Below the pieces are notes generated by a model. The model ran no database searches, had not been told where the DNA came from, and was given only the letters and a program-made list of their open reading frames with translations. From a virus: a stretch of 40,347 nucleotides of DNA. Both the position numbers and the translations under genes were made by a program. How positions within the stretch are numbered: position 1 is the first letter of the stretch; every line of letters starts with the position of its first letter. Shown here piece after piece: positions 7,397 through 39,212 of the stretch. The stretch is from the UHGV virus genome UHGV-0039399. One strand, 5' to 3'.

Positions 7397-7687
7397 TTAA
7401 TGATAACGGACTCTGTCTAGCGGAATTTCACCAAGATTGCGCGGTTGCGTTGCGTGGAAGTAGTTTCCGCTTTCATTTTCCGCATACCATTTTACCGCTC
7501 CTTTGCGGCGTTCTTTTTTGCCATCCTGCTTACATCTTTCGTCGCTTGCCATTCGAATGGCTTTTTCAACGTTGTCAGTTTTGTTGATTGCAGGCGATGA
7601 TTTTCTTTCGTTTTCTCTTCTTATTCTTCTGCGTTCCCTGGCATTCAGTTTGCTTTCACATTTGCCGTACATGATTGTAACTGTCAT
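7397..7687 (-). CDS. N-like transcription antiterminator (P22 gene-24-like)
   Basis: N-terminus MTVTIMYGK...NARERRRIRR resembles P22 gp24 as I recall it, with an arginine-rich motif; first gene downstream of the putative PL/nutL; AAGGAG RBS. Confidence 0.75.
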   Translation of the reverse strand: MTVTIMYGKCESKLNARERRRIRRENERKSSPAINKTDNVEKAIRMASDERCKQDGKKERRKGAVKWYAENESGNYFHATQPRNLGEIPLDRVRYH

Positions 7688-8620: not shown

Positions 8621-8925
8621 ATCGCTACCCTATAACCTAAAAAATTTTGATGCAAGTCACAAAATGTATTTTTCAATCCTTGATCTATTAACAACATTCT
8701 GTAAACTTGCTGACAAGGTAAGGCCATAGTTGCAAGGATGCAAGGAAAAAGATAAGGGAAAGCACAAAAGGCAAAAGCCTTAAGCTCTTTAAAAATCCGG
8801 TGGCGCTGCAATGCGTAAAACAAATATCACGCAACGGCGGGATCTGTTAAGCGGTCAATCACTGCTATCTAATGCCAATGGGATGCCCGCCCGCGCGTTC
8901 ACTCTAACCATAGGAGAAAACACGA
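8621..8925. promoter_or_regulatory. immunity-region divergent promoter/operator region (PRM/PR-equivalent)
   Basis: 305-bp AT-rich intergenic region between cI and the first rightward gene; contains TGCAAGG direct repeats and an ACAAAATGT motif also present near PL. Confidence 0.5.
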
Positions 8926-9179
8926 TGAGTATGAACATGATTAGCAAAGCATGGAACGTAAAACTTAACAGCCCGATCCAAAAACTTGTCTTAATTGCGT
9001 TTGCAGAAAAGGCAGACAACAAGGGCCGCGCACACGCTTCACGCGAAGAGATTGCAAAAGTCTGCGAACTGCCACTGCATACTACTGTTGACGCATTAAA
9101 CTCATTAATCCGCAAAGGATTCATTAAACGCGCTGACGAATACGGCGAAATTTATGACATTGCTTTGCCTGAGGAATGA
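8926..9179 (+). CDS. winged-helix DNA-binding protein (first gene of the rightward operon, Cro position)
   Basis: AGGAG RBS 9 nt upstream; predicted wH/HTH segment; the longer 8811 start has a weaker RBS. Confidence 0.5.
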
Positions 9180-9182
9180 TCT

Positions 9183-10100
9183 ATGAAGTGGTTTAAACAT
9201 GATAGCGATGCGAACCGCGACGAAAAACTTCAAAACGTTTTGTTAGATTATGGCCTGGAAGGTTATGGGCTTTATTGGTATTGCCTCGAACTGATAACTT
9301 ATGACGTAGATCAGCACAACCTCAATTTTGACCTTCGACATGATGCCAGAATCATCGCGCGTAACGTCGGATCGACTGAGAAGCGCATTGAGGAAATGAT
9401 GAAATACTTTATCGAAATTGGTCTATTCGAATGTTCTCAGGGGCATATAACTTGTTTAAAGTTATTAAAAAGGCTGGACCAATCAATGACATCTAAAAGC
9501 GCATATAGGGCAGCCATAAACACAGCGAAGGAGCAATTAAAATTAGAAAAGCTAATCAATACAGCGCCAAAGGGTCATGATGAGGTCATGATTGGGTCAT
9601 GTCAGGGTCATGATAGGGTCATGACCGGGTCATGGCAGGGTCATGAATTAGAATTAGAAGAAGAAAGAGAAAAAGAAAAAGAAAAAAACATATTGATCAG
9701 CGATGCTGATCGAAACGCTTTCGAAGACATCTTCTGGCCTGCATACCCACGGAAGGTTAACAAGCAGGCAGCGTTTAAGTCATTCAAAACGAGAGCAAAG
9801 GAATGGGTGAAGGAAAACAAATCAACTGTCCAGGCTTTCGCGGAAATGCTGGTTAAAGATCTTGAGCGCAGGAAAGGTTGGTTCGGTAGCGACAAGTTGC
9901 ACCCAACAACATATCTGAACCAGAAACGCTGGCTTGATGAACCGGAAGGAGGTAACAACCAGGATAGCAATGTTGAAGGTAAGAAGCTGCGCCGCATCGT
10001 CGGGAAGAGTGGTCAGATTTACGAACGAATGTTAACGGATGATGAGTATAACGAATATCTCCGACGGTTCGCGGAGTGGCAGAAATCACAACACGCTTGA
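9183..10100 (+). CDS. replication initiator / replisome organizer (O-like)
   Basis: N-terminal MKWFKHDSDANRDEKL...YGLYWYC domain typical of phage replisome organizers; iteron array embedded in the coding sequence as in lambda O. Confidence 0.75.
   Translation: MKWFKHDSDANRDEKLQNVLLDYGLEGYGLYWYCLELITYDVDQHNLNFDLRHDARIIARNVGSTEKRIEEMMKYFIEIGLFECSQGHITCLKLLKRLDQSMTSKSAYRAAINTAKEQLKLEKLINTAPKGHDEVMIGSCQGHDRVMTGSWQGHELELEEEREKEKEKNILISDADRNAFEDIFWPAYPRKVNKQAAFKSFKTRAKEWVKENKSTVQAFAEMLVKDLERRKGWFGSDKLHPTTYLNQKRWLDEPEGGNNQDSNVEGKKLRRIVGKSGQIYERMLTDDEYNEYLRRFAEWQKSQHA
9573..9649 (+). repeat. seven direct GGTCATG iterons at exact 11-bp phasing
   Basis: GGTCATG starts at 9573, 9584, 9595, 9606, 9617, 9628 and 9639. 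Confidence 0.75.
9573..9713. promoter_or_regulatory. candidate origin of replication (iterons, purine/A-rich tract, GATC-containing palindrome)
   Basis: Iterons are followed by an A/G-rich stretch (9646-9690) and the inverted repeat GATCAGC-gat-GCTGATC with two Dam sites; this mirrors ori-lambda inside gene O. Confidence 0.65.
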
Positions 10101-16636: not shown

Positions 16637-16854
16637 TGGATAAGATCGGCGCAATACTCATTAATCGCGAGCAAGTGCAAAAAATGTTGGGCGGGCTTAG
16701 TAAGTCGGCGTTTTTTAAACTGGTTAAGAAGTGGAAGGATTCAGGTACTCCATTCCCTGAACCCGTTAAGGGGATGCCAGCATTAAAGCGCGGCGGTTAT
16801 CTTTACCGTTATCAGGATGTTATTTCATTTTGTAAATCAATGGGCTTCATGTAG
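16636..16854 (+). CDS. excisionase-like / AlpA-type small DNA-binding protein
   Basis: 72-aa protein with the excisionase-type HTH pattern (INREQVQKMLGGLSKSAFFKLVKK); adjacent to int, 3' ends overlap by 43 bp. Confidence 0.6.
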   Translation: MDKIGAILINREQVQKMLGGLSKSAFFKLVKKWKDSGTPFPEPVKGMPALKRGGYLYRYQDVISFCKSMGFM

Positions 16855-18011
16855 TAATCAGCCAGTTTATTCATCGCCTCGATTTGCTCCCTCACATAGT
16901 CATACTGATCGTATATAGCAAACATCCCCGCCAGCTTATGACCCAAAACCTTTTCCGCGACATGAGGCGCAACGCCAAGCGCTGAAAGGTTTGTCCTCAC
17001 GGTGCGGCGTAGATCGTGACACGACCACGGCTCGCCGCCCATCCTCATCATTAAATCCCTCGCTGCTGTTTTCGGCACGCTTCTGTCCACCGCAACATCC
17101 CTTCCAGAAAGCACAGGAACGAAGACAAAATCAAAGCTATGTAGATCCATAGCCTCACGCAATAAAGCCACGCTAACGTTCGATAAACCGCGTTTAAACT
17201 CATTCCTGTTCTTACTCAATGCACCAGGAACAGTCCACACGCAGCTATCAAGATCGAAATGCTCGCGCCTTGCGTTTGTCAGTTCGCTTGTCCTGCACCC
17301 GGTAAATATAATCAGCTTCATCAATATCTGGTTCAGTCGCGCCATTTTTGAACTATCTACAAGGCCGATTAGACGGTGGATCTCCTGTATTGACAAAACT
17401 CGCTTGCCTTGCGCTGGTTTTTTGCCTACGTCTTTAACGCACAGCAATGATATATCGTCACGATCCACGCGGCGGCGGCGAATGGCGTATTTTATTACGG
17501 CCTTCATTCTGTTGAGAACTATGCCTGCCTGAACTGGTGCGCCACCATTAGCTACCTTCCTAAAAACTCCCTCCCACATCATAGCGTCCATATCATCTAC
17601 AATATAGCTACCGTATGGTTTTATGACGTGCTTACCTAACATGGACTCAACCTGCTTATAGTTGACCATGTTCCTTGCCTGCGGCGATTCCATGTACTCC
17701 CTTACAATATCCTCAACCGTCGCCCGTGTCGTAACTCTGGAAAGGTGCATTCTTTTTGCTACCGATGGATCTCGTCCTGAGTTTAGTAATTCTTTATGCT
17801 CCGCCACCGCCGCCCGCGCTTCTTTGAGCGTTATTTCTCCGTATGTGCCAATCTTCATCCGTCGAGGCTTGCCGTTGAATCGGTAGCGATACTGGAAAGA
17901 TATAACGCCTCGTGGGCTTATCCTGGCAGACAATCCGCCAGCGTCCGGTAATTCCTCCGGGCCGTCGTACGGCTTGCCGTGAATGTTTCGTAATTTGGTA
18001 TCTGTAAGCAT
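16812..18011 (-). CDS. int: tyrosine site-specific integrase
   Basis: 399 aa; N-terminal arm-binding-type domain; C-terminal catalytic region with HDLRRT...LGH and conserved Tyr context. Confidence 0.95.
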   Translation of the reverse strand: MLTDTKLRNIHGKPYDGPEELPDAGGLSARISPRGVISFQYRYRFNGKPRRMKIGTYGEITLKEARAAVAEHKELLNSGRDPSVAKRMHLSRVTTRATVEDIVREYMESPQARNMVNYKQVESMLGKHVIKPYGSYIVDDMDAMMWEGVFRKVANGGAPVQAGIVLNRMKAVIKYAIRRRRVDRDDISLLCVKDVGKKPAQGKRVLSIQEIHRLIGLVDSSKMARLNQILMKLIIFTGCRTSELTNARREHFDLDSCVWTVPGALSKNRNEFKRGLSNVSVALLREAMDLHSFDFVFVPVLSGRDVAVDRSVPKTAARDLMMRMGGEPWSCHDLRRTVRTNLSALGVAPHVAEKVLGHKLAGMFAIYDQYDYVREQIEAMNKLADYYMKPIDLQNEITS

Positions 18012-21304: not shown

Positions 21305-21335
21305 AAACCCCGCGCGAAGCGGGGTTGTTTTTTTA
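21305..21335. terminator. bidirectional rho-independent terminator (lipoprotein gene / J)
   Basis: CCCCGC-gcgaa-GCGGGG hairpin followed by a T-run on the plus strand and an A-run/U-tract on the minus strand. Confidence 0.7.
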
Positions 21336-28734: not shown

Positions 28735-28920
28735 ATGGTTAACAAAATGGCGCGGAGGTGTGAGGTGGATGATAAGGTGTGGAGGTTGACGGTATTCCTT
28801 AGTGATGGCAGGGAAATGACTGTGGCCCTGTATAAAGATGAAGGCGAGGCACTTACTGACGCGCTCTTACTCGCTGAAGATGAACGAGTTTTTGGATACA
28901 GGATCGAACCTGTCAAATGA
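28735..28920 (+). CDS. small acidic protein (61 aa), L-M cassette gene 1
   Basis: ORF with AAAGGAAG RBS on the strand opposite the tail operon. Confidence 0.5.
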   Translation: MVNKMARRCEVDDKVWRLTVFLSDGREMTVALYKDEGEALTDALLLAEDERVFGYRIEPVK

Positions 28921-28933
28921 GAGGTTAACAAAA

Positions 28934-29284
28934 ATGCAAAAATACAGTTTAGAGGTCTGGACTGATAAATGTGAATGGGAGCGCATGGGCCTGTTTGATA
29001 CATACGCCGCAGCGCGTGATGAAGGTCGTGAGTTACTTCGCTGTTGGTCTGGCGCTCGTGATTTTGATATTACTCCGGTCCAGGTGCCGGATATGGTGGA
29101 AGAGATGAACCCGAAAGATATTAACTTCAACGTCAATGTTGAATTTTCAGACTCTATGGATCAGGCTTGCCCTGGTGAAATTCACGCAAAAGGTTTTCCG
29201 GCAGACGATCCAGAAGCAAAACGCGAATACGAAAAAGCTGCGAAAGACTTCTGCATTGATAACCTGGGCGCATTCGATAAATAA
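28934..29284 (+). CDS. acidic protein (116 aa), L-M cassette gene 2
   Basis: GAGAGG RBS; start refined from the track ORF 28838-29284; strongly acidic C-terminal half. Confidence 0.55.
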   Translation: MQKYSLEVWTDKCEWERMGLFDTYAAARDEGRELLRCWSGARDFDITPVQVPDMVEEMNPKDINFNVNVEFSDSMDQACPGEIHAKGFPADDPEAKREYEKAAKDFCIDNLGAFDK

Positions 29285-29293
29285 GGGGGACAC

Positions 29294-29542
29294 ATGGGTC
29301 GGCGCAACCACGGCGATTATGTGTACACGCTGAAACAGGCCGCCCGCCTCGTCGGGTATCATGAGCACGAATTTATTGATTTGCTGATTGAGCGCGGGAT
29401 ACTTTACCAGGTCTGTCTGACGCTGTACCCAAAAGCGAAATACCTACAGGAAAAGTTATTTATCATCATGACGGACGAAAACCAGGTAAATCACTCATTC
29501 GTCACTGATAAAGGTGTCAACTATCTGCGTGATAACTTATAG
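29294..29542 (+). CDS. small HTH DNA-binding protein (82 aa), L-M cassette gene 3
   Basis: GGGGG RBS; N-terminal excisionase/MerR-like HTH (YTLKQAARLVGYHEHEFIDLLIERGIL). Confidence 0.55.
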   Translation: MGRRNHGDYVYTLKQAARLVGYHEHEFIDLLIERGILYQVCLTLYPKAKYLQEKLFIIMTDENQVNHSFVTDKGVNYLRDNL

Positions 29543-29551
29543 GCGGCAATT

Positions 29552-29623
29552 ATGGATGAGGTTATCGAGAATGTTTTGGTAGTGGCTGGCGCAATTGCCA
29601 TAGTTTATGCCTTTCTGAGCTAA
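29552..29623 (+). CDS. 23-aa hydrophobic peptide, L-M cassette gene 4
   Basis: Manually found ORF MDEVIENVLVVAGAIAIVYAFLS; very short, tentative. Confidence 0.25.
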   Translation: MDEVIENVLVVAGAIAIVYAFLS

Positions 29624-29634
29624 TGGGGTGGATT

Positions 29635-29772
29635 ATGAAAATCGAAGTTTTAGCATTAATCGCAATGGGCTTGATCGTCTTCGGTGTTCACGCTGCTGGT
29701 TGGGACTGGGCTGCAATAGCAAACAACATGGCGCACGCTCACCCAATGAGCTTGCTGTATATTCACTACTGA
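29635..29772 (+). CDS. 45-aa membrane peptide, L-M cassette gene 5
   Basis: Manually found ORF MKIEVLALIAMGLIVFGVHAAGWDW...; followed immediately by a strong terminator. Confidence 0.35.
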   Translation: MKIEVLALIAMGLIVFGVHAAGWDWAAIANNMAHAHPMSLLYIHY

Positions 29773-29777
29773 CAAGA

Positions 29778-29808
29778 AAAACCCCGCTTCGCGCGGGGTT
29801 GTTTTTAT
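29778..29808 (+). terminator. rho-independent terminator ending the L-M cassette
   Basis: CCCCGC-ttcgc-GCGGGG hairpin plus T-run; same stem and flanks as the terminator at 21305-21335 but with a reverse-complemented loop. Confidence 0.7.
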
Positions 29809-30005: not shown

Positions 30006-30359
30006 TTAGCCAACAACTTGTTCAAACGTTGCGTTTAGCGTGCAAACAGGCCCGTCTTTGGTCATATTCCAGCTACGACAAACGAAAAGCCTTTGCACCC
30101 CGTCGGTCGATGGAGTCCAGTAAAACGCCTCGACCGCGCCGCGCGCCCTTAAAAATGCGTCAACCTGTAGCGCGACATTTCCTGCTGCACCGCATCCTGC
30201 ACTACTTCCTTTGAAAACCAGGGTATAAGTATCAAGTAACGTGTTGATCCCTTTCGCCTGGCGCTGCTCATAACCGTCACCAAGTTTAACGACGGACACG
30301 TTTGGTTCAGTGTTTACGCTGTAGCTTCTTTGCGGCGTCCATTTGAAAACTTCAGGCAT
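30006..30359 (-). CDS. M: minor tail protein M
   Basis: Similar to lambda gpM as I recall it (GDGYEQR vs GDGYSQR; C-terminal FEQVVG vs FEQVVN); start refined to the ATG preceded by a G8 tract. Confidence 0.85.
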   Translation of the reverse strand: MPEVFKWTPQRSYSVNTEPNVSVVKLGDGYEQRQAKGINTLLDTYTLVFKGSSAGCGAAGNVALQVDAFLRARGAVEAFYWTPSTDGVQRLFVCRSWNMTKDGPVCTLNATFEQVVG

Positions 30360-30533
30360 GATCCCCCCCCTCTCATAAGTTACATATTGCATACATCTTT
30401 ACGCGCTTCTACGCGAAAAATGATAACTTCGTCACAAGAATTATACCAAGTTTACGAAATGGCTTCACACAGGACGCAACAAGATGTATACAGAAAGCAA
30501 GAAGAGAAAGCAGTACCAACAAAGGGGGCCAAT

Positions 30534-30689
30534 ATGGAACGCTATGTAGTGGTAATGCTAAACAAAGCATTCGAACAGGTGGAAGTTGCGATTGTGAAGG
30601 GTTTTGATGATGCATTCAAATACGGTCAATTCATGATGAATGCAAAAGAAGATGAATACCGTGATTTCTTCCTGAAAGTGGTCAACTGA
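30534..30689 (+). CDS. small protein (51 aa), M-tape-measure cassette gene 1
   Basis: AAGGGGG RBS; opposite strand to the tail operon; the track's longer ORF 30330-30689 has weaker start context. Confidence 0.45.
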   Translation: MERYVVVMLNKAFEQVEVAIVKGFDDAFKYGQFMMNAKEDEYRDFFLKVVN

Positions 30690-30709
30690 TTGATTGCGCG
30701 GGGTGAGTT

Positions 30710-30964
30710 ATGAAATTGGTGGCGATTGGCAAAAACCTGAAAGCACAGAAAAACGCACAGGAACGGATCATCAAAAAAGGCAAGGCTTTATTAAATTCTT
30801 TCCTGAAAAAAGAGGCCAACCCCAAAAAATTACGCGATGGCTACGGCTATAAATTTGACATCAACCCCGATTGGCGGTTATTCAGCGAAGATTTAAAGAT
30901 GTGGTTAATTATTGACCATCTGGAATACAACCGCCACTGTGGCGTAAAAGGGGCGCATAAATGA
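30710..30964 (+). CDS. basic Lys-rich protein (84 aa), cassette gene 2
   Basis: ORF with GGGGTGAG RBS-like context. Confidence 0.5.
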   Translation: MKLVAIGKNLKAQKNAQERIIKKGKALLNSFLKKEANPKKLRDGYGYKFDINPDWRLFSEDLKMWLIIDHLEYNRHCGVKGAHK

Positions 30965-30972
30965 GGTGAAAT

Positions 30973-31065
30973 ATGGATGACGATAAATTCACCTGGCGGG
31001 AGATCTGGAACATCTGGCAGGTGATGTTTGCTCGCAGCTACATAGCAAGAAACGGCAGGTTGTGA
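30973..31065 (+). CDS. 30-aa peptide, cassette gene 3
   Basis: Manually found ORF with GAGGTGA RBS; tentative. Confidence 0.25.
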   Translation: MDDDKFTWREIWNIWQVMFARSYIARNGRL

Positions 31066-31083
31066 TTTGCGGAGGAAAATAAA

Positions 31084-31254
31084 ATGAAAAACCCGGCAAA
31101 TAAAAGCAATGTAAAACGTATGGCATGGGTGCTAAAATATATGGATAGCAAAGGGGATACATATACATGTCCATTTTTCAGGTATACTGACGCGGTATTT
31201 GCCAGAAGTGTACACGGAGGGAAAATTGAAAGAGGGTATACAAGATTTGAGTAA
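31084..31254 (+). CDS. small protein (56 aa), cassette gene 4
   Basis: Manually found ORF MKNPANKSNVKRMAWVLKYMDSKGDTYTCPFF...; GGAGG RBS. Confidence 0.4.
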   Translation: MKNPANKSNVKRMAWVLKYMDSKGDTYTCPFFRYTDAVFARSVHGGKIERGYTRFE

Positions 31255-31289
31255 ATTTATTCAGTAAATTAATAACATAATGAAGGTTT

Positions 31290-31472
31290 ATGATGATTAT
31301 TCACGAGACTGAAGAATGCAGAAGGATTGATCTTAGTGTTGAAGATGATGGAAGATTATGGATCGTTAGCGACTGCGAGATGATTGTAATAAACAAAAAG
31401 CAAGCTGACGAACTGATAAGAGCATTACAGCTTTATGCAAGCGGCGAATTTAAGAATGATGAAATTGAATAA
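31290..31472 (+). CDS. small acidic protein (60 aa), cassette gene 5
   Basis: ORF with GAAGG RBS, followed by a terminator. Confidence 0.5.
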   Translation: MMIIHETEECRRIDLSVEDDGRLWIVSDCEMIVINKKQADELIRALQLYASGEFKNDEIE

Positions 31473-31475
31473 AGA

Positions 31476-31506
31476 TAACCCCGGCATTGTACCGGGGTTT
31501 TGTTTA
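31476..31506. terminator. rho-independent terminator between the convergent cassette and tape measure gene
   Basis: CCCCGG-cattgta-CCGGGG hairpin followed by TTTTGTTTATTT. Confidence 0.65.
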
Positions 31507-33852
31507 TTTCCTGCGAGGTTGCAACATACCGCCAGGTCGTTGTGATTCCCTTGCCATCATTTTCATTGCTACGCGCTCCATCGTCTGTTCAAGTCTGCGA
31601 CCGTCTTCGTCGCTAAACCCGTTCGTGGTATGGACGTTTATGTTAACGGGCATATTTATGCCGCCACCATTGAAGAGATCACGGCCAGGAATCACCCTAC
31701 CATTCTCGCCAGGAATCATATACTGACGCCCGTTGCTCGTCTGGAATAGCTCAGGAATCCCGTGTTCACCTACGCGATACAGACTACCACCATTAACAGA
31801 ACCACCATTATAACGCCCGCCGCCAAAAATTGACGTTGCCAGCGACATGATCGCAGAAAGCGCCGCAGCACCAGCCGCCGCCCAGCTACCGCCAGTCGAT
31901 GCAGCAGTAGCCGCCGCAGCAGGGGCCGCCGCAGCCGCGATCTCACCCTGGGCAGCAACAGCGCCAGCCGTTGTACTTGCCTGGGTAGCTTTGCTTTGCG
32001 TTTCCATCATCAACTGATCTGCTATCCAGTTAGCGGCAATTTCTGATAGTTTATTGCCAACAGTATTGAGTATGCTGCTTCCCAGGTTGGCGAAAACCTC
32101 ACTTAGCGATTGAGTACCGTTTAGCAGTCCGGTAAGGGCATTACCCATGCCACCTTTCAGGCCGCTGACGCACGCACCAATCAGGCCGTTTGTGTCGCTT
32201 TGCGCCTGCCATTGTTCCCATTTCAGATCTCTGATCTGTTGTTCATATTCCAATAGAGCCTGTTTCTGTTGCGCCTCTGTAGCGCCCAGGTCTATTAGCA
32301 TTTGTTTTCGAACTGCCCATTCATTTTGCGCCTGCTTGATTGGGTCAATTTCTCCCTTAAGCTGGTCCATCGGGCTAACTATGTGGTCCCATTTATCGCG
32401 TAGCTCATCAACCGGGATCTGAGCTAATTCGTCCTTCAGTTCCTTGCCTATCCCTTTCTGCGCGGCCTTGTACTCAAGGAGGGTTATTTTGCCCTGGGCG
32501 AACGCAGCATCAATGGCCTTGCCGTTCTCCAGCGCCTTACGCATGGCTGCGGCGTCCTTGTTGTACTGGTCGGACACTTTTATACCTTCATCACCAAGCC
32601 GATCAGCTTCTGATTTCTTGTCCTTTTTGCCCTTTTTCCCTTTCTTCGGCTTACCAACTGGCTGATCGAATCCCGTGATCTTGCCATCGTCAGCCTCACC
32701 CTGTTTCTGCATAAACTCATCATAGGCGGCTGTGGCTTTTTCTATGTCATTCTTAAATGTCATGAATTTGCCAATGGTAGGGCCAAATTTCTTCTCGTTG
32801 TTGCTGTTTAGCTCTTCCTTGCGTTTGTCAATGATTTCCTTCATCCATTTGTAGCCATCCATTAGCGCCTTGATTGGCGTCACCATTCTGATGATTTCTT
32901 CCGCCACCTCTCCCGCTTTAACAGCAACATCGTCAAACATGTCGATGAACTCGCTACCAGCGGTTTTAAGTGTATTGAAGCAGGTTGCGGCGAATTTTGC
33001 GCCTTTACCTAATCCCTCAACGCCACCAGTGATTAAGTCTATTGCTGACACAACGCCATCTGATATGCCGAAAAGATCGTCTAGCTGTTCGACAAGCCCC
33101 ATTACCTCAACTTTAAGCTCGTTGAAGGCCATGCCGGACGTGCGCGGCAACTGTGCGAACTTCTCGTTCGTTTCCTGCGTGGATGCCTGGATCGCGTTGA
33201 GCATCCTTTCAGCCGTGATCTTACCGTCCAGCATTTCGGCGCGGAATTGACCCATTGATAACCCCATTTGGCGGGCCATTTCCTGTATGATTGTTGGTGT
33301 GTTGTCACGTATTGAGTTAAATTCTTCAGCCTGCAACACGCCAGCATCAATAGCCTGGCGGAACTGGCGCATGGAGTTAGATAGCTGTTCCGCAGACACG
33401 CCGCCCAGGTTGCCTAGTTTTTGCAGCGTGCTGACCAGGTTTAAGACCTGGCCTTCCGTAGCGGATGTATTTTTTAGCGATATAGCAAGCCCTTGCCACA
33501 GGTCGCCAGTGTCCTTGAGGCTTTGGCCTGTCTCTTTTGATATATCTTTCAGTCTGTTGAAAACGCGTTCCGTGGCCTCTGCTTCACCTGTAAGCAGTTT
33601 GATTTTCACGCGAAGCATTTTTGCTTGCTCCGCCATGTCAATAAACTGGCGCACAGCCTCCGCAGCAAGTAACAGATGGATGACCCTGGATAGTGCTTTG
33701 ATTGAAGTCTTAAGCGTATTCACCTGGCGGTCAGCGCGTTTTGCGCCACGCTCGATACTGTCAAAAGCCTGGTCTGCCTGTCGTTGAGCAACGAGAAGTT
33801 GACCAGTTTTTGCATCAACTTCGTAATAGATTGTACCTAAACTACCCGACAT
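31504..33852 (-). CDS. tail tape measure protein
   Basis: 782-aa, largely alpha-helical, Ala/Gln-rich ORF with a Gly-rich C-terminal region, positioned between tail chaperone and M. Confidence 0.9.
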   Translation of the reverse strand: MSGSLGTIYYEVDAKTGQLLVAQRQADQAFDSIERGAKRADRQVNTLKTSIKALSRVIHLLLAAEAVRQFIDMAEQAKMLRVKIKLLTGEAEATERVFNRLKDISKETGQSLKDTGDLWQGLAISLKNTSATEGQVLNLVSTLQKLGNLGGVSAEQLSNSMRQFRQAIDAGVLQAEEFNSIRDNTPTIIQEMARQMGLSMGQFRAEMLDGKITAERMLNAIQASTQETNEKFAQLPRTSGMAFNELKVEVMGLVEQLDDLFGISDGVVSAIDLITGGVEGLGKGAKFAATCFNTLKTAGSEFIDMFDDVAVKAGEVAEEIIRMVTPIKALMDGYKWMKEIIDKRKEELNSNNEKKFGPTIGKFMTFKNDIEKATAAYDEFMQKQGEADDGKITGFDQPVGKPKKGKKGKKDKKSEADRLGDEGIKVSDQYNKDAAAMRKALENGKAIDAAFAQGKITLLEYKAAQKGIGKELKDELAQIPVDELRDKWDHIVSPMDQLKGEIDPIKQAQNEWAVRKQMLIDLGATEAQQKQALLEYEQQIRDLKWEQWQAQSDTNGLIGACVSGLKGGMGNALTGLLNGTQSLSEVFANLGSSILNTVGNKLSEIAANWIADQLMMETQSKATQASTTAGAVAAQGEIAAAAAPAAAATAASTGGSWAAAGAAALSAIMSLATSIFGGGRYNGGSVNGGSLYRVGEHGIPELFQTSNGRQYMIPGENGRVIPGRDLFNGGGINMPVNINVHTTNGFSDEDGRRLEQTMERVAMKMMARESQRPGGMLQPRRK

Positions 33853-33890
33853 GATTTTACCTCACTAAAAAGTGTGATCCAGATCCATAT

Positions 33891-33934
33891 TTTATACAAA
33901 ATGTCTTCACTTCAACGTATACATTTTGTATAAA
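33891..33934. promoter_or_regulatory. perfect 14-bp inverted repeat TTTATACAAAATGT-N16-ACATTTTGTATAAA (candidate operator)
   Basis: Exact inverted repeat in the intergenic region between the tape measure start and the third opposite-strand cassette. Confidence 0.5.
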
Positions 33935-34101
33935 GAAGTCAAAGGAAGAGAGAGAAAAGAAGGTCGAAGGAATAAGGGATTAAGACTTGAGGCACAGCCA
34001 ACCGAAGGAACGAGGGAGGCGAAAACCACTAAAACTAACAGGAAACAGAAAAAGGATTTAAAAGACCGGATGAACCGGAGGAAGCAAAAGAGGATAAGAA
34101 A

Positions 34102-34188
34102 ATGAAAGGCTACTACCGACCCAACGAGCATGAGCATTATGCCGACTTTATCGAAGAAATGCTGAAAGCACTTAAAAACAAGAAATAA
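34102..34188 (+). CDS. 28-aa peptide, tape-measure-chaperone cassette gene 1
   Basis: Manually found ORF MKGYYRPNEHEHYADFIEEMLKALKNKK after a purine-rich leader. Confidence 0.3.
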   Translation: MKGYYRPNEHEHYADFIEEMLKALKNKK

Positions 34189-34201
34189 GCGGGGCGGGTG
34201 A

Positions 34202-34309
34202 ATGGACACAATCAAAACGGTTATAGATGTATATATTACAGCATGGTTAGCATTTAATGTGATGGCTGTGCTGGTGCTGGCAATGACAACCGAAGATAAA
34301 CGCAATTGA
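34202..34309 (+). CDS. 35-aa membrane peptide, cassette gene 2
   Basis: Manually found ORF MDTIKTVIDVYITAWLAFNVMAVLVLAMTTEDKRN. Confidence 0.35.
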   Translation: MDTIKTVIDVYITAWLAFNVMAVLVLAMTTEDKRN

Positions 34310-34319
34310 GAGGTGTATC

Positions 34320-34622
34320 ATGGAACTGGTAATTTGCTTCGTCGGATTCATCGCAACTATGGTTGTAGCTCAGAAAAAACACCTGAATATGCTCCCGGCA
34401 TTCTTTGGTGCGCTGATTTGTTGGCCTGCCGTATTGATTTACGCGCTGTGCGTTAACAAAAAGATGTTCAAACACTACGTTGATGCAGTGACTTTCGTAA
34501 GCATGGAGTTCCCGAACGCAACTGACGTACAGAAAGCACAGGTAGCAACTTACATTTACGATAACGTGTACGATATTCATGACCTGGATGAAGCAAGATG
34601 CCGATTCGCAGCATACAAATAA
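34320..34622 (+). CDS. membrane protein (100 aa; two TM segments plus soluble C-terminus), cassette gene 3
   Basis: GAGAGGTG RBS; hydrophobic N-terminal half; followed by a strong terminator. Confidence 0.6.
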   Translation: MELVICFVGFIATMVVAQKKHLNMLPAFFGALICWPAVLIYALCVNKKMFKHYVDAVTFVSMEFPNATDVQKAQVATYIYDNVYDIHDLDEARCRFAAYK

Positions 34623-34626
34623 AGAT

Positions 34627-34654
34627 AAAGGCCCGGTTAATTCCGGGCTTTTTC
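34627..34654 (+). terminator. rho-independent terminator ending the third cassette
   Basis: GCCCGG-ttaatt-CCGGGC hairpin followed by TTTTTCTTGTTT. Confidence 0.65.
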
Positions 34655-35317
34655 TTGTTTGCGTTTTTTCATCAATTCCAGCACCCTTTTAGCCGCTCCC
34701 ATTTGCTCATCATAATCACGTTTATTTATCTGAACGTTTGGCTTACGTTTCTCGTTTCTTTCGTCTGGCGGCGTTTTAGCGCGTACAGCGGCACGATACC
34801 CGGTCATGGTCATACCCCACGCCTCAGACTCAGACAATCCCAGGTGAGCAACGGCAGAGTAAACATACTCAAGGATGTCGAATGTCTGTTTATAATCGCC
34901 TTCCTGCTCATCGCTAACGTCTTCCTCCGGTCCGTCACCAATTAAACCGTGGAACATGCAGTGTTGCGCCAGTGTGATAACGTCGCTGGTGGGCATTAAT
35001 CCGGGTTTTAGTCTCAACTTACCCGAAGGAGTGAAGCTACATTCGCCCAATAACTGGCCTATTTCGCATTCTGAGCAACATTTCAATATGTGGATGGACG
35101 TTTGCACCAGTTCACCATAACAACGCGCCAGAATGCGATTGCGGAGGTCTGGATCAACTGGCATACGCCGTGGGTATTTGCCACCGTGAACCGTTGCGAA
35201 GTATTCGACCAGTTCCCTGTCACCGCCGATCTTAGCCATTGCAGCAAAGCAGGGATTAAATTCGTAACGTCTGCCATCAACCACAACCGCAAACTGTCCT
35301 GTTCGAACGTGAATCAT
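34637..35317 (-). CDS. putative tail assembly chaperone (G/GT position)
   Basis: 226-aa ORF between the tail tube gene and tape measure; AAGGTG RBS at the refined ATG; assignment by position only. Confidence 0.45.
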   Translation of the reverse strand: MIHVRTGQFAVVVDGRRYEFNPCFAAMAKIGGDRELVEYFATVHGGKYPRRMPVDPDLRNRILARCYGELVQTSIHILKCCSECEIGQLLGECSFTPSGKLRLKPGLMPTSDVITLAQHCMFHGLIGDGPEEDVSDEQEGDYKQTFDILEYVYSAVAHLGLSESEAWGMTMTGYRAAVRAKTPPDERNEKRKPNVQINKRDYDEQMGAAKRVLELMKKRKQEKARN

Positions 35318-35327
35318 AGTTGTCACC

Positions 35328-35356
35328 TTAAAAAATAAAGGGGCCAAGCGGCCCCG
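35328..35356 (-). terminator. rho-independent terminator after the major tail gene (attenuator)
   Basis: GGGGCC-loop-GGCCCC hairpin followed by CUUUAUUUUUU on the minus strand, 17 nt after the tail tube gene stop. Confidence 0.6.
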
Positions 35357-35372
35357 ATGTCAATATTTACTG

Positions 35373-35849
35373 TTACAATACAGGAACGTCACCTACTGTG
35401 ACCTTGCCAGCGCTTTCGCACTCAATTGACCAGGTGGACACATCGTCGTGCGGATCTTCTTCCTTAAAGGAAGTGCAAAGGAACGGACCCTCTGTTACAT
35501 CAAGCGGTGAAACGAGTTTCAACCAGACGTAAGGCTGCGCACCAGTTGTTTCGCCAGGGTTAATAACGTGGCGTTTAAGTGCTTTCTGGTTGTGGATCTC
35601 TTCGGTGCGGGATACGCCGTCGCCGGAGAAGGCAACAGATTTGTAAGTTACCAGTGATTCTTTTGTGTAGTCTGCTGATTTATCAGCGGTGGCGTCTGCG
35701 GTTTCCCATTCTACGGAAAGAGATTTGCCACGCATCATGCCTAACGCTTTATAGTCTTCTTCGTTTGGTTTCGTTTTAGGGCAGGCGATAGCGTAGAATA
35801 CGGCAACGTCACGGCCTAAGAACGAACCTTTTTCACAAGTCTGAGACAT
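35373..35849 (-). CDS. major tail (tube) protein
   Basis: 158-aa ORF in the V position, followed by an attenuator terminator; assignment by position and size. Confidence 0.55.
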   Translation of the reverse strand: MSQTCEKGSFLGRDVAVFYAIACPKTKPNEEDYKALGMMRGKSLSVEWETADATADKSADYTKESLVTYKSVAFSGDGVSRTEEIHNQKALKRHVINPGETTGAQPYVWLKLVSPLDVTEGPFLCTSFKEEDPHDDVSTWSIECESAGKVTVGDVPVL

Positions 35850-35861
35850 GTTAGTTACCTC

Positions 35862-36248
35862 TTATCTAGATATGATGGTTTGGAAAGCTACGGTGAAAAT
35901 AAAGCGCCCTTCTCTCGTCTGCATTGCAGGAATGGCGCCAATTGGTTTCATGTGTGTAATTTTATCAGTTTTGTATTCGGTTATCATACTCTGGCGTATT
36001 GCGTCGGCGAGGTCTTCCACTTCACTGATATTTGCGTCATTGCGTGCTGAAATTACCAGGATGCGGAAATAGTCACGGGTTACTGCTTCTTCACCAGCCG
36101 CGCCGCCGTTTTGCTGTATGACAATGTACCTGTCGTTATTCGAATTGGATCGCTCATTCCAGAAACGGGCCTGCAAAATATAACCTTCGTCGTACCCGTG
36201 GGACTTAATCCAATCCCTTATTTCGTCATATACTTCGCTGCGTTTCAT
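35862..36248 (-). CDS. tail terminator protein (U position)
   Basis: 128-aa ORF immediately upstream of the tail tube gene; positional assignment. Confidence 0.45.
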   Translation of the reverse strand: MKRSEVYDEIRDWIKSHGYDEGYILQARFWNERSNSNNDRYIVIQQNGGAAGEEAVTRDYFRILVISARNDANISEVEDLADAIRQSMITEYKTDKITHMKPIGAIPAMQTREGRFIFTVAFQTIISR

Positions 36249-36718
36249 GATTGTTTCGTCCAGTACCCAAGTTTTATCGTATTCCAGATTTCATTGAAAT
36301 TGTCTGGTTCCTCGAACGCCTTGCGCAAAAATTCTGGTTCCGCGTTTGGGTCCCAATAATAACCCTTCCCAGTACCGCCACCGAACGCAACTACCTGTTT
36401 CGGTCCGAAATCAGAAAGGTTGTTGGTTTTACCAAAATGCTCGCGAGGCTGTCCCATTAATGTCCCCGGCATGTCATGCACCCATTCAGCATAGCGGGCG
36501 GTATATCCAACCCTTAGGCAAAGGCCGTTGCCGCTTTTCTCGACAGTCTGGTACATGCTGTTAATCAAAAAACCCGTATCAACTGGCGTCATTCCAGATG
36601 CAAGGCCGGACGCAACGTTTCCAACAATCCATAGCACTTCATAAGTCTTTTTGTCTGCTATGTTCCTGATTTCTTCCGTCATTTTAATACGGACGCGTCT
36701 GACGCCTTTCAGTGGCAT
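36245..36718 (-). CDS. tail completion / neck protein (Z position)
   Basis: 157-aa ORF; positional assignment in the head-tail joining module. Confidence 0.45.
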   Translation of the reverse strand: MPLKGVRRVRIKMTEEIRNIADKKTYEVLWIVGNVASGLASGMTPVDTGFLINSMYQTVEKSGNGLCLRVGYTARYAEWVHDMPGTLMGQPREHFGKTNNLSDFGPKQVVAFGGGTGKGYYWDPNAEPEFLRKAFEEPDNFNEIWNTIKLGYWTKQS

Positions 36719-36720
36719 AA

Positions 36721-37089
36721 TTAACCTCCTGTGACGATCTTATAATCCGGCGTGTCGTTAAACATGCTCATGTCCCATTCAACGATCCCGGTTATAAAAT
36801 TGGCCCCAGCCGCCAGCGGGTCAGCAATAGCAGTGGTGTCACCAGTGGCAAGCATCCACCCTTTTTCCGGTCGCTGTACTGACTGCATCTTGTAAAGCAG
36901 TTCGGTATATACGGTTATCGTGTTGCTAACCTCATTCCCGTTTGCATCTGTTGCGGTTCCGTCAGTACGCTCCCATGCACAATCAATCAGATATGGAGTT
37001 CCGTATACATCGGAGTTCGTCCAATCGTCACGCGTCACTGGGTAAATGGTGGCTAATGCCTTGTAAGTGAATCGTGATAGCTTACTCAT
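36721..37089 (-). CDS. head-tail joining protein (FII position)
   Basis: 122-aa ORF; positional assignment. Confidence 0.45.
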   Translation of the reverse strand: MSKLSRFTYKALATIYPVTRDDWTNSDVYGTPYLIDCAWERTDGTATDANGNEVSNTITVYTELLYKMQSVQRPEKGWMLATGDTTAIADPLAAGANFITGIVEWDMSMFNDTPDYKIVTGG

Positions 37090-37267
37090 ATCCGTTGCTC
37101 CATTTGATGATTCTCGGATGGGTTTCCGCCACGCGCGGGCAGAGAATTACCCATTCGCCAGCGTCATTGAGATATGCCGCCACCTGTCGCCCGGTGTCAG
37201 TCTTCACCCACACGCGGGTGAACGGCTTCGGCAATAGCGGTTTAGGTAACGTAAGGTCATTCCACAT
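37082..37267 (-). CDS. small hypothetical protein (61 aa)
   Basis: ORF overlapping neighbours within the head-tail joining module. Confidence 0.4.
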   Translation of the reverse strand: MWNDLTLPKPLLPKPFTRVWVKTDTGRQVAAYLNDAGEWVILCPRVAETHPRIIKWSNGYE

Positions 37268-37269
37268 TG

Positions 37270-37656
37270 TTACATCCTCCCGCTTTTACCTATCCACAGC
37301 CCAGCGTGTGCGGTGTTCTGTGGATCTGCCGGAACCAATTCGGCGGTGCAGTGATTCTTGTCTAGGGAGTAAAGCAACGAGTGTGCTGCTTTCCATTTTT
37401 GGTTGAAATCGACATATCGGTATGACTGGCTTGCGCCGTTCGTACCAGTATGCGAGGAAACGTATTTGTTAGCCTGGGTAAGTCCTAACAGGCCAATCAG
37501 GTAAAGTTGAATTAATGTTGCAGTGGAGGTCGGATAGTTGGCATCAAGGCATTCGTTAACGCTGTTTGCCTGCTCCACCAGCAAGGATAAGATAACGTCT
37601 GGCAGGTCAATACCCTGGCTTTCAAGATATTCCCGCGCCTGTTCTGTAGTGACCAT
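37270..37656 (-). CDS. head completion / head-tail connector-type protein
   Basis: Start refined to ATG (MVTTEQ) with GGAG RBS, downstream of the capsid-gene terminator; positional assignment. Confidence 0.45.
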   Translation of the reverse strand: MVTTEQAREYLESQGIDLPDVILSLLVEQANSVNECLDANYPTSTATLIQLYLIGLLGLTQANKYVSSHTGTNGASQSYRYVDFNQKWKAAHSLLYSLDKNHCTAELVPADPQNTAHAGLWIGKSGRM

Positions 37657-37671
37657 TTTGTTTGCTCCACA

Positions 37672-37702
37672 TACAAAAAAAATCCCCGGCATCGCGCCGG
37701 GG
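37672..37702 (-). terminator. rho-independent terminator after the major capsid gene (attenuator)
   Basis: CCCCGGC-atcgc-GCCGGGG hairpin followed on the minus strand by a U8 tract. Confidence 0.7.
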
Positions 37703-37722
37703 AGTTACAGGAAATGCAAGAA

Positions 37723-38772
37723 TTATTGATGACCGTAAACGACGCCGGAACGGCCCAGCATGTCGCAGGTGATTTGTAAACCTTCGGCAGACATGATTTT
37801 GAAATTGTAGTTATCGGTAGGCATGGTGCGAGGAACAGGCACTACGCCAGTAGTCATACCGATCAGCGGGCTGATAACATCACGACGGCGCTGATAAGCA
37901 ATGATTTCGTTGCCAGTCAGTGCGAAGGACTGACGGATTTCACCAACCGGGGCGAACGGCATAACAGTATTGAGCACGCTACCAACGACAGCACCGTTAA
38001 CGATGTGCGGGCGGGCCAGGTTAGCCATGACGTCCGGTGATACCCACATAACATCGTATTTAGCAACGAAGTTATTGCGGGCCAGTACGCCGAACTCGCC
38101 AATGGTGAAGAAGTCGATCAGTTGGTCGAATGTTGCTGTTTTCAGGTCAGTGGTCAACACAAGCTGTTGGGTGTTTTTGTGGTTTTTAATACCCATTGCT
38201 TTATGACCATCAACAACCATGTTTTCATTCCCTTCGAGGTAGAATTTAACACGGCGTTTGTTGAATTTTTTCAGTTTCAGGCGCTGGCTGTCCAGAGCAA
38301 GGTCAATGCCAACAGTGTTTAAGCCATGAGCTAAACGCCAGTTGACACCGTAACCAGCGGTAAACATCGGAATCGGGTCGCCATCGCTGCCGTATTCGGT
38401 GTGGTCATAGCCGTGCGGCGCCTGGCCATCCATAGACATCACGACTTCATCGTTGATGTCACCGGATACGTTGTACATTTTCAGCGTTTTACCGATAGGC
38501 AGTACGGTTTGAACGCCCATAAGGTCGTTGACGATCTCAATACCGATTTCCTCGGTGTTCAGTTCGATGATCTGGTTATCAATTTCTTTCCAGAACTCTT
38601 TCGCGAAGCCACCAACAGCGTTGCAGGCCAACATTTCAGCAGTCATGTTTGCTTTGTTTGCTGCAATCATGGCGTCATGTTGAGCGTTGAAGATATTACG
38701 TTGCGCCCACAGTTCGTTCCAATGGCCCTGCATACGGGCGTTGGTAGCAAGGTTTTCTTTGGTAAAGTACAT
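37723..38772 (-). CDS. major capsid protein
   Basis: 349-aa ORF with AAAAGGGGA RBS, preceded by the decoration and scaffold genes and followed by a strong terminator. Confidence 0.75.
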   Translation of the reverse strand: MYFTKENLATNARMQGHWNELWAQRNIFNAQHDAMIAANKANMTAEMLACNAVGGFAKEFWKEIDNQIIELNTEEIGIEIVNDLMGVQTVLPIGKTLKMYNVSGDINDEVVMSMDGQAPHGYDHTEYGSDGDPIPMFTAGYGVNWRLAHGLNTVGIDLALDSQRLKLKKFNKRRVKFYLEGNENMVVDGHKAMGIKNHKNTQQLVLTTDLKTATFDQLIDFFTIGEFGVLARNNFVAKYDVMWVSPDVMANLARPHIVNGAVVGSVLNTVMPFAPVGEIRQSFALTGNEIIAYQRRRDVISPLIGMTTGVVPVPRTMPTDNYNFKIMSAEGLQITCDMLGRSGVVYGHQ

Positions 38773-38789
38773 GTTTTTCCCCTTTTAAA

Positions 38790-39212
38790 TTAAGCGACGC
38801 GAACGCGGATAAAGTCTTCCGCTTCCAGGGTTACGTCTTCCTGGCAGAATGCAATGATTGGTGCTGAACCGCCGTCCACAGCAGAGGACAATTTAGCGCC
38901 CTCTGCCGCAAGGGCAATGGCTGCGCCTTTGGCATAGGTGGCATTAGGAACACGGAGAGCGAACTCACGCCCCTGTTCCACATAATCGGCTACAACTGTT
39001 GCATTTGCAGCGATTGCATCAGCAATGGTTTTACCTTCATGGAATGCCGGGTTAACAATATATAATTGTTCCTTGCCGACATCGGCAGGCGCTGCTTTAA
39101 CGAATTTACCGCCTTCCAGTTTAACCAGTTCACCCGGTTTTAATTCAGCACCAGCGAGGCGGGTTTCGGTGATGGATTTGCCATCAATATTTACACGACG
39201 AAAACGAAACAT
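38790..39212 (-). CDS. head decoration / stabilisation protein (D position)
   Basis: 140-aa Ala-rich ORF between the scaffold/protease and capsid genes; AAAAGGGGA RBS. Confidence 0.5.
   Translation of the reverse strand: MFRFRRVNIDGKSITETRLAGAELKPGELVKLEGGKFVKAAPADVGKEQLYIVNPAFHEGKTIADAIAANATVVADYVEQGREFALRVPNATYAKGAAIALAAEGAKLSSAVDGGSAPIIAFCQEDVTLEAEDFIRVRVA

Follow-up and report, generated by a model that had tools for sequence, protein, structure and literature searches.

Genes and hairpins of the late operon

The window, that is, the whole stretch of 40,347 nucleotides analysed here (UHGV-0039399), holds, judging by sequence comparison, part of the genome of a temperate coliphage of the mEpimmI group. 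Its DNA identity to the phages mEp021, mEp554, mEp044, mEp010, mEp515 and mEp013 is 81-94%, and it contains an integrase gene. Its late (virion) genes form a single co-directional operon, with the structural genes encoded on the minus strand. Two hairpins followed by U tracts lie on this same strand, one behind the gene of the major capsid protein (T_cap) and the other behind that of the tail tube, or major tail, protein (T_tail), and all the neck and tail genes are located downstream of T_cap (Table 1).

The identity of both genes, as proposed in an earlier note made from the sequence, proved correct. The 349-aa protein aligns over its full length (residues 2-348) with the solved structure of the 'Major capsid protein gp39' (PDB 9ocb_A, E 5e-48), matches Pfam DUF6260 (352 bits) and PHROG 771, and has near-identical homologues named 'major capsid protein' at NCBI; the record of another homologue, ES18 gp9, bears the note 'putative coat protein; present in virion'. 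The gene directly upstream codes for the head decoration protein and thus also precedes T_cap. The 158-aa protein was recognised by Pfam Phage_tail_2 'tail tube protein' (33.3 bits, above the cut-off of 23.8), by PHROG 853 and 1407 'major tail protein' (E 1e-48 and 1e-39) and by PDB 9occ_A (E 2.5e-5), and its relatives are annotated as 'tail tube protein'. Synteny points the same way, the gene being flanked by that of the tail terminator protein, directly upstream, and on the other side by the genes of the chaperone-like DUF6246 protein and the tape measure.

By analogy with other phages the DUF6246 product is probably the tail assembly chaperone: in JBD44 a homologue is found directly ahead of the tape measure gene, and the record of ES18 gp17 mentions a 'possible +1 frameshift at 3' end'. 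We have considered whether the chaperone is extended by frameshifting into the ORFs that separate DUF6246 from the tape measure gene, and discarded the idea, the minus-strand frames there looking non-coding. A plus-strand ORF in this interval, with two transmembrane helices, is plausibly an opposite-strand moron.

Table 1. Position of the genes, hairpins and U tracts discussed in the text.
Feature	Position	Strand	Description and evidence
Head decoration protein gene	38790..39212	minus	140 aa; PHROG 766 'head decoration', E 8e-41
Major capsid protein gene	37723..38772	minus	349 aa; PDB, Pfam, PHROG, named homologues
T_cap hairpin	37683..37703	minus	5'-UCCCCGGCG CGA UGCCGGGGA-3'; annotation of relatives, fold energy, conservation
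T_cap U tract	37675..37682	minus	U8; read directly from sequence
First gene past T_cap	37270..37656	minus	128 aa; DUF7370 / PHROG 786; GGAG ribosome-binding site at 37666-37669
Tail terminator protein gene	35862..36248	minus	128 aa; Pfam Phage_tail_terminator_3, 139 bits
Tail tube (major tail) protein gene	35373..35849	minus	158 aa; Pfam, PHROG, relatives, synteny
T_tail hairpin	35340..35355	minus	5'-GGGGCC GCUU GGCCCC-3'; annotation of relatives, fold energy, stem covariation
T_tail U tract	35330..35339	minus	UUUAUUUUUU; read directly from sequence
First gene past T_tail (DUF6246)	34637..35317	minus	226 aa; Pfam DUF6246, 187 bits
Terminator after DUF6246	34627..34652	bidirectional	also terminates a small convergent ORF of the plus strand
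Terminator after tape measure gene	31477..31499	bidirectional	hairpin/U-tract scan
Terminator within minor-tail region	29780..29800	bidirectional	hairpin/U-tract scan
Terminator after J-like tip gene	21306..21326	bidirectional	21-nt hairpin of 29780-29800, inverted

Anatomy, conservation and recurrence of the two sites

The hairpin of T_cap has a stem of 9 bp (closing G.U pair included; 7 of the 9 are G-C), a loop of 3 nt and a free energy of -16.7 kcal/mol, and its U tract is the best of the window. A spacer of 19 nt separates it from the capsid stop codon (37723-37725), within an intergenic gap of 66 nt, and another 5 nt lie between the U tract and the ribosome-binding site that serves the next gene (ATG at 37656). 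T_tail is smaller, with 6 bp, all of them G-C, a loop of 4 nt and -12.5 kcal/mol; here the hairpin starts 17 nt after the tube stop codon (35373-35375) in a gap of 55 nt, and the U tract adjoins the AAGGUG ribosome-binding site of the DUF6246 gene (ATG at 35317). On the plus strand neither of them qualifies as a terminator, and both are therefore unidirectional. An Rfam scan of positions 33800-39000 at a permissive E-value found no known RNA family, the T_cap hairpin yielding two sub-threshold sRNA matches. Some minimum-energy folds show a long-range pairing between a conserved UUUCC, on the upstream side of T_cap, and the GGAG ribosome-binding site beyond it; we have rejected this interaction because UUUCC changes in several genomes in which GGAG shows no corresponding change.

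In order to assess the chance level we have applied a fixed rule (a hairpin of -10 kcal/mol or better and at least 5 U in 8 nt) to both strands of the window. Eighteen sites passed it, as against 2.6 +/- 1.6 (maximum 7) in 40 dinucleotide-preserving shuffles, an enrichment of about seven-fold.

Both sites are found in every mEpimmI-type genome in which they could be scored (T_cap 55/55, T_tail 53/53). At T_cap the stem is invariant across the 55 genomes, the loop is variable, and the tract keeps 7-9 U in all of them. At T_tail a U-rich tract is likewise kept throughout (UUUCUUUU, UUCCUUUU and UUUUCUUUU are among its variants), and the loops as well as the flanks on both sides are variable. All 120 stem cells of the 20 distinct T_tail sequences are paired, including one compensatory change (C-G to U-A); this covariation concerns a single stem pair, and the support for structural maintenance comes mainly from conservation. 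In both cases, loops and spacers vary among the relatives and the stems remain paired. Nucleotide diversity over hairpin and U tract was 0.025 at T_cap, compared with 0.35 and 0.22 at third codon positions in the genes on either side, and 0.079 at T_tail, compared with 0.39 and 0.31, so that overall the two sites are 4-14 times less diverse than the neighbouring silent sites.

Both sites thus combine a GC-rich, short-loop stem with an adjoining U tract, on the coding strand, in an intergenic position and with the structure kept. By anatomy, strand, placement and conservation they are canonical Rho-independent terminators, for which termination itself is a prediction. The hairpin plus U-tract terminators that the earlier note had placed after the capsid (37672-37702) and tube (35328-35356) genes are hence confirmed on the minus strand, with stems and tracts now delimited exactly. 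The same note had also taken them as support for the capsid and tube assignments, and this part did not hold: four more strong terminators on the coding strand trail genes of non-abundant products (DUF6246, tape measure, the minor-tail block and J), and a terminator therefore does not identify an abundant protein. More generally, a gene trailed by a terminator is not evidence of an abundant product.

Within the mEpimmI group the two sites are an ordinary feature. The orthologous sites are annotated as terminators in six published relatives (mEp021, mEp554, mEp044, mEp010, mEp515 and mEp013), at the same two intergenic positions and with hairpins nearly identical to those of the window; these annotations are computer predictions by independent programs, ARNold having been used for the mEp phages other than mEp021. 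In mEp021 they appear as TERM_7 (T_cap) and TERM_8 (T_tail), with 'score=100' entries, and in mEp554 as T12 and T13; the mEp515 record calls the tail site on the opposite strand. The late operon of the window is punctuated in the manner usual for its phage group, and the importance of this is mostly one of correct annotation.

The position also recurs far outside the group. Of 12 distant phages whose capsid gene is homologous, 8 have a coding-strand terminator within 500 nt past the capsid stop, with unrelated hairpin sequences (binomial P of about 5e-6 against a background of 0.22 per kb, for loci that are not fully independent). In one distant relative, SB28, the neighbourhood includes an anti-repressor gene. 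A terminator after the major tail gene was seen in ES18, S107, SB28 and Mannheimia 3927AP1. The Salmonella phage ES18, whose capsid is 65% identical to that of the window, has putative terminators after gene 10 (one extra small ORF behind the coat gene) and gene 16, and the record of coliphage HK97 places them directly after gp5 and gp12. In both phages, as in the window, a terminator directly after the major tail gene is followed by the chaperone gene, and the hairpin sequences are unrelated to T_cap and T_tail. HK97 is a lambdoid phage, and the lambdoid group uses Q.

Possible roles in late gene expression

The mEpimmI group requires N-like and Q-like proteins (PMC11893012). We have identified gp37 of mEp021 as a Q-family antiterminator (Pfam PF03589, 102.9 bits; PHROG 127, E 3e-78), and its gene, which precedes those of the holin, the terminase and the head, is present in all 7 GenBank members and 84-100% conserved there; both this gene and the late promoter lie outside the present 40-kb partial contig and are known from the relatives. 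From these relatives and from lambda (PMC10695390) we infer that T_cap and T_tail would be under Q control. The tail genes are essential and downstream of the sites, and the group encodes Q, so that termination during lytic growth must be leaky or suppressed.

The sequence points to the following scenario. The nascent hairpin would fold while the U tract is being transcribed, and some polymerases would release the RNA just ahead of the next ribosome-binding site. Given the downstream genes and Q, the two sites would act during lytic growth as leaky steps rather than stops, and mRNA would be expected to fall stepwise, from the head genes to the neck and tube genes and from these to chaperone, tape measure and tip. 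The RNAs that end at the sites would bear a stable 3' hairpin, which should shield the capsid and tube cistrons from 3' exonucleases. A polymerase lacking the Q modification, for example in a lysogen, would be expected to stop efficiently at both. The most likely reading, as far as the sequence can tell, is thus that T_cap and T_tail are leaky attenuators and 3'-end stabilisers at the same time. We regard it as probable that they are genuine Rho-independent terminators of the E. coli RNA polymerase in the late operon, leaky steps that contribute to the output of capsid and tube and do not make up the whole mechanism.

The earlier note had seen in such terminators the way to set the high stoichiometry of the two proteins. 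As a proposed effect this is a plausible but incomplete explanation. A terminator lowers only the genes downstream of it, and the terminase and portal genes (upstream of the capsid gene in the relatives) and the neck genes upstream of the tube gene would be transcribed like capsid and tube, so that termination alone cannot set the stoichiometry; since low-copy upstream genes share the transcription level of capsid and tube, the effect could only be coarse. We have also examined the strength of the ribosome-binding sites as a stoichiometry signal and discarded it, since capsid (-7.8) and tube (-7.1) have unremarkable SD:anti-SD energies (other late genes reach -11.0), which single out neither gene. 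In the searchable literature we found no transcript 3'-end, coverage or in vitro termination data for the mEpimmI group; the study that reports virion mass spectrometry for the group (PMC11893012) neither tested nor discussed its late-operon terminators. Nor did the searchable literature yield, for any Q-dependent phage, a measurement of the share of the capsid and tube excess that is due to termination, RNA stability or translation, and the two canonical unidirectional sites of the mEp phages would make these a clean system for apportioning it.

Protection of the RNA might also be the main role. The Q-modified polymerase would then read through almost completely, the long late transcript would be cut in its AU-rich spacers and the GC hairpins would block 3' exonucleases, so that the capsid and tube segments outlive the rest. 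Intercistronic stabilising hairpins of this kind are known from the mal, pap and puf operons. Apart from the Q-type antitermination of the mEpimmI group, this reading draws on the stable hairpins that lack a usable U tract behind the major tail gene of Midgardsormr38, CobraSix and HK97 (gp12), which hint that the hairpin and not termination may be under selection, and on lambda, where a GC hairpin 3 nt past the capsid gene E has only a weak U tract. What speaks against it is the strict maintenance of the U tract in all the genomes scored for T_cap and T_tail: termination needs this tract, whereas an exonuclease barrier does not. We consider it rather unlikely that stabilisation is the main function, although the roles of stabiliser and terminator are not mutually exclusive.

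Alternatively, the sites could be safety insulators of the lysogenic or early state, which stop unmodified polymerase that has leaked into the operon, have little effect under Q and tune no stoichiometry. The phages are indeed temperate, with the integrase in the window and Q in the relatives, and there are six strong terminators on one operon that needs expression to its end. However, the placement is specific, behind the genes of the two most abundant virion proteins, and recurs in distant relatives including SB28 and HK97, a position that insulation alone does not require and that is shared by the virulent phage T7. A purely insulating role is thus unlikely.

Also unlikely is the possibility that T_cap and T_tail, instead of being simple attenuators, are Q-sensitive switches that work together with a conserved promoter of the extended -10 type inside the operon, TGATAAAAT, which would make of the tube gene and, by analogy, of the decoration-capsid pair semi-autonomous high-output units within the late operon. 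This motif lies at 35967..35959 of the minus strand, some 110 nt ahead of the tube ATG, and does not vary among 53 genomes. We do not claim it as an internal promoter ahead of the tube gene, and statistically it is unconvincing because, at the observed invariance of 23%, a run of five invariant third positions should turn up in about one of every ten genes of such length. Promoter-like sites are fewer in the window (13) than in the shuffles (25.5).

The conserved blocks might, finally, have nothing to do with selection on RNA function, being recombination linkers at the boundaries of the head, neck and tail modules or hitch-hiking with a conserved downstream gene. Capsid alleles (75%-98% identity) are shuffled relative to tail alleles (mEp021 has 75% in the capsid and 96% in the tube, mEp515 93% and 79%), and conservation is also fairly high in the block downstream of T_cap. 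Even so, T_cap is still about 9-fold less diverse than the gene downstream of it is at third positions (0.217), T_tail combines variable flanks and loops with a compensatory change in its stem, and distant phages carry unrelated hairpins at the same position, all of which makes this explanation very improbable. That the hairpins and U runs are functionless chance occurrences is already refuted by the seven-fold enrichment of strong sites, their universal conservation among scorable relatives, the covariation in the T_tail stem and the recurrence in distant phages, there being nothing in its favour except that weak terminator-like patterns are common.

Comparison with known systems

A parallel to leaky termination at T_cap is Tphi of phage T7, which is located directly after the major capsid gene 10 and has essential genes downstream. 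T7 read counts fall behind Tphi, immediately after gene 10 (PMC6938266), and the site has been cited as a model of the inefficient terminators that balance phage gene expression; in phage LUZ7 most of the mapped terminators are leaky and help in this balance (PMC9163698). The likeness has its limits, since T7 is virulent, Tphi acts on the T7 RNA polymerase and gene 10 has dedicated promoters immediately ahead of it, whereas the window would be transcribed by the host polymerase, probably in its Q-modified form, and no internal promoter is established. If the units of Q-sensitive switch and TGATAAAAT considered above were true, they would be the host-polymerase counterpart of the T7 phi10-gene 10-Tphi cassette.

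Lambda makes one long late transcript that depends on the Q antiterminator (PMC10695390). The late operon of the mEp group differs from it in its two canonical unidirectional and four bidirectional terminators; in lambda the hairpin past gene E has a poor U tract, and gene V is followed by no such hairpin. Many siphophages, some with Q-type antitermination among them, have a strong terminator right behind the major capsid gene and frequently a further one behind that of the major tail protein.

Anatomy and conservation of the two terminators

The hairpins with U tracts that an earlier note had described behind the major capsid gene (T_cap) and the tail tube gene (T_tail) are correct in coordinates and strand, as judged from the minus-strand sequence, a consensus terminator scan in which both were among the top matches, and folding (hairpin-only energies of -16.7 kcal/mol for T_cap and -12.5 kcal/mol for T_tail). 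The minus strand is that of the structural genes of the window, and only on this strand do the two sites score as terminators.

Positions of the features discussed in the text
Feature	Position	Strand	Remarks
Major capsid gene	37723..38772	minus	349 aa; stop UAA
T_cap hairpin, UCCCCGGCG-CGA-UGCCGGGGA	37703..37683	minus	19 nt past capsid gene stop
T_cap U tract, U x8	37682..37675	minus	directly after stem
GGAG ribosome-binding site		minus	5 nt past T_cap U tract; next gene ATG at 37656
TGATAAAAT, extended -10-like motif	35959-35987	minus	~110 nt upstream of tube gene ATG
Tail tube gene	35373..35849	minus	158 aa; stop UAA
T_tail hairpin, GGGGCC-GCUU-GGCCCC	35355..35340	minus	17 nt past tube gene stop
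T_tail U-rich tract, UUUAUUUUUU	35339..35330	minus	directly after stem
AAGGUG ribosome-binding site		minus	adjoins T_tail tract; next gene ATG at 35317
DUF6246 gene	34637-35317	minus	226 aa
Terminator after DUF6246 gene	34627-34652	both	closes first island; 34631-34648 under the fixed rule
Terminator after tape measure gene	31477-31499	both	closes second island
Terminator after minor-tail block	29780-29800	both	closes third island; AACCCCGCGCGAAGCGGGGTT
Terminator after J	21306-21326	both	AACCCCGCGCGAAGCGGGGTT, opposite orientation
First small-ORF island	34320-34652	plus	interrupts late minus-strand operon
Second small-ORF island	30330-31499	plus	interrupts late minus-strand operon
Third small-ORF island	28838-29800	plus	interrupts late minus-strand operon
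Integrase gene	16812-18011		directly after J and tail fibre

Seven Escherichia phages of the mEpimmI group (mEp021, mEp554, mEp044, mEp010, mEp515, mEp013 and MagusPhagus), which are temperate, Nus-dependent, non-lambdoid siphophages (PMC11893012), share 81-94% DNA identity with the window region. Both terminators are already on record as predictions, since six of these seven GenBank records annotate them at exactly these positions (that of MagusPhagus has no terminator annotation): in mEp021 as TERM_7 after gene 56 and TERM_8 after gene 61, each with 'score=100', and in the remaining annotated mEp phages as ARNold predictions. They are not discussed in PMC11893012. The window (1-40347) is partial, covering about 40 kb of a genome of about 54 kb, and carries head, tail, J, tail fibre, integrase and early genes; it lacks the stretch that in mEp021 holds the Q, lysis, terminase and portal genes, and the location of the integrase corresponds to a phage (not prophage) gene order.

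We have taken 49 further loci with the capsid protein from IMG/VR, used tblastn to place the gene ends, and compared both intergenic regions. T_cap was found in all 55 scorable genomes, with an identical stem, a tract of 7-9 U and the loop variants GCGAU, GCAAU, AUCAC and AUCGC. T_tail was found in 53 of 53, with seven different loops and with spacers differing in length and sequence; its stem occurs in two forms, GGGGCC/GGCCCC and GGGGCU/AGCCCC, which differ by a compensatory change, and 120/120 stem cells are paired. Nucleotide diversity of hairpin plus U tract was 0.025 for T_cap, versus 0.35 (gene upstream) and 0.22 (gene downstream) at third codon positions, and 0.079 for T_tail, versus 0.39 and 0.31 correspondingly. 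Since only one pair covaries, probably through one event, purifying selection, not covariation, carries the argument. That these are real intrinsic terminators is indicated by their anatomy and by the selection pattern, in which the U tract is strictly preserved.

Identity of the neighbouring genes

The 349 aa protein matches over its full length the solved 'Major capsid protein gp39' (PDB 9ocb_A, E 5e-48), as well as Pfam DUF6260 and PHROG 771. NCBI uses the name major capsid protein for near-identical E. coli proteins, and ES18 gp9 (65% identical) is recorded as a putative coat protein present in virions. The 158 aa protein passes Pfam Phage_tail_2 (tail tube protein) and matches the 'major tail protein' families PHROG 853 (E 1e-48) and PHROG 1407 (E 1e-39); its gene is preceded by that of the tail terminator protein (PF23842) and followed by the DUF6246 and tape measure (PF20155) genes. 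Its single PDB sequence match, 9occ_A, is called 'putative neck whiskers protein', a name that probably goes back to an old label, given the 'fibritin (wac)' note on the major tail protein of SB28. Both assignments of the earlier note are thus right on evidence independent of the terminators (PDB, Pfam, PHROG, synteny). Its use of the terminators as support for them does not hold: on the coding strand, DUF6246, the tape measure, the minor-tail block and J are each followed by a strong terminator as well, so that a terminator is no marker of an abundant product.

The mEp tube protein is short and covers only the first ~155 positions of PHROG 853, while homologues in ES18 (8064-8801), JBD44 (8371-9366), Midgardsormr38 and CobraSix have 245-330 aa, two of them annotated with an Ig domain; by this comparison, a C-terminal domain appears to have been lost in the mEp group. 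The DUF6246 protein, of a family without assigned function in Pfam, occupies the tail assembly chaperone position. Its JBD44 homologue lies directly before the tape measure gene, and the ES18 gp17 record mentions a possible +1 frameshift at the 3' end. The slot between DUF6246 and tape measure genes is variable: in the window it holds the first island, with a 100-aa ORF of two hydrophobic helices, and nothing in the window matches the 139-aa mEp021_63 protein, which is encoded at this place in mEp021.

Proposed role in late transcription

The interpretation in the earlier note is partly supported: the elements and the two gene identities are right. The note had also proposed that the terminators set the high stoichiometry of capsid and tail proteins. 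A terminator, however, lowers only what comes after it. In relatives, the decoration and capsid genes are themselves preceded on their strand by terminase, portal, head-morphogenesis and scaffold-like genes; the tube gene, likewise, comes after the neck genes. Termination can thus produce no more than a coarse staircase, which would descend from head genes to neck and tube, and then to chaperone, tape measure and tip. The four other strong terminators of the coding strand and the Q-type antitermination of relatives limit this reading further. A stoichiometric role is plausible, but putative and incomplete as an explanation.

To reach the essential tail genes, polymerase has to pass up to five terminators and three opposite-strand islands, so read-through must be substantial, which favours leaky, probably Q-modulated attenuators. 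T_cap and T_tail would stop unmodified polymerase, and the capsid and tube messages would have 3' ends made more stable by the hairpins. A Q-family antiterminator gene precedes the late genes in relatives (mEp021 gp37, Pfam PF03589, 102.9 bits; conserved in 7/7 phages), the mEpimmI group requires N-like and Q-like proteins (PMC11893012), the whole 27-gene late transcript of lambda needs Q (PMC10695390), and leaky terminators are common in phages (PMC9163698).

If the hairpins served RNA stability purely, the U-less hairpins of some relatives would fit, but the conserved U tracts of the mEpimmI group would be left unexplained, just as a purely insulating function leaves unexplained the specific, recurrent position. 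The diversity contrast with the flanks, and the unrelated hairpins at the same position in other phages, make a recombination linker or hitch-hiking less likely. Chance occurrence is excluded; 18 sites in the window, both strands together, pass a fixed rule (folding energy of -10 kcal/mol or better for the hairpin, then 5 U or more among the next 8 bases), versus 2.6 +/- 1.6 (maximum 7) in 40 dinucleotide-preserving shuffles. The late strand has six of the 18, every one intergenic.

Two further elements were seen. An identical 21-nt hairpin, AACCCCGCGCGAAGCGGGGTT, recurs 8.5 kb apart and brackets the tail-tip genes (L-, K-, I- and J-like); the two copies have unrelated flanks, indicating either a re-used terminator or convergence. 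Within the tail terminator protein gene, the TGATAAAAT motif could be an internal promoter; it is unchanged in 53 genomes, five consecutive third codon positions included, a conservation that is statistically unconvincing.

The same layout in other phages

The capsid family occurs in 322 phage records, from which we have chosen 12 diverse ones. In eight, a coding-strand terminator lies no more than 500 nt past the capsid stop, in most cases with one small ORF in between; the hairpins include some of unrelated sequence. Against a background of 0.22 per kb the binomial P is about 5e-6, an optimistic value because several loci are related. A terminator follows the major tail gene in ES18, S107, SB28 and Mannheimia 3927AP1, and a stable hairpin without U tract in Midgardsormr38 and CobraSix; JBD44 has neither after this gene, because the genes overlap.

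The layout also matches annotation in other siphophage records. That of ES18 gives putative terminators after genes 10 and 16, and that of HK97 has putative ones directly behind its major head gene and its major tail gene, where we see a hairpin with U4 after gp5 (5192-5213) and one without U tract after gp12 (7443-7462). Lambda has nothing after gene V, and a hairpin of -12.3 kcal/mol with a weak U tract 3 nt past capsid gene E (7163-7180). These two lambdoid phages thus likewise have GC hairpins immediately behind major virion genes. The classic functional analogue of T_cap and T_tail is Tphi of T7, located after gene 10 (PMC6938266).
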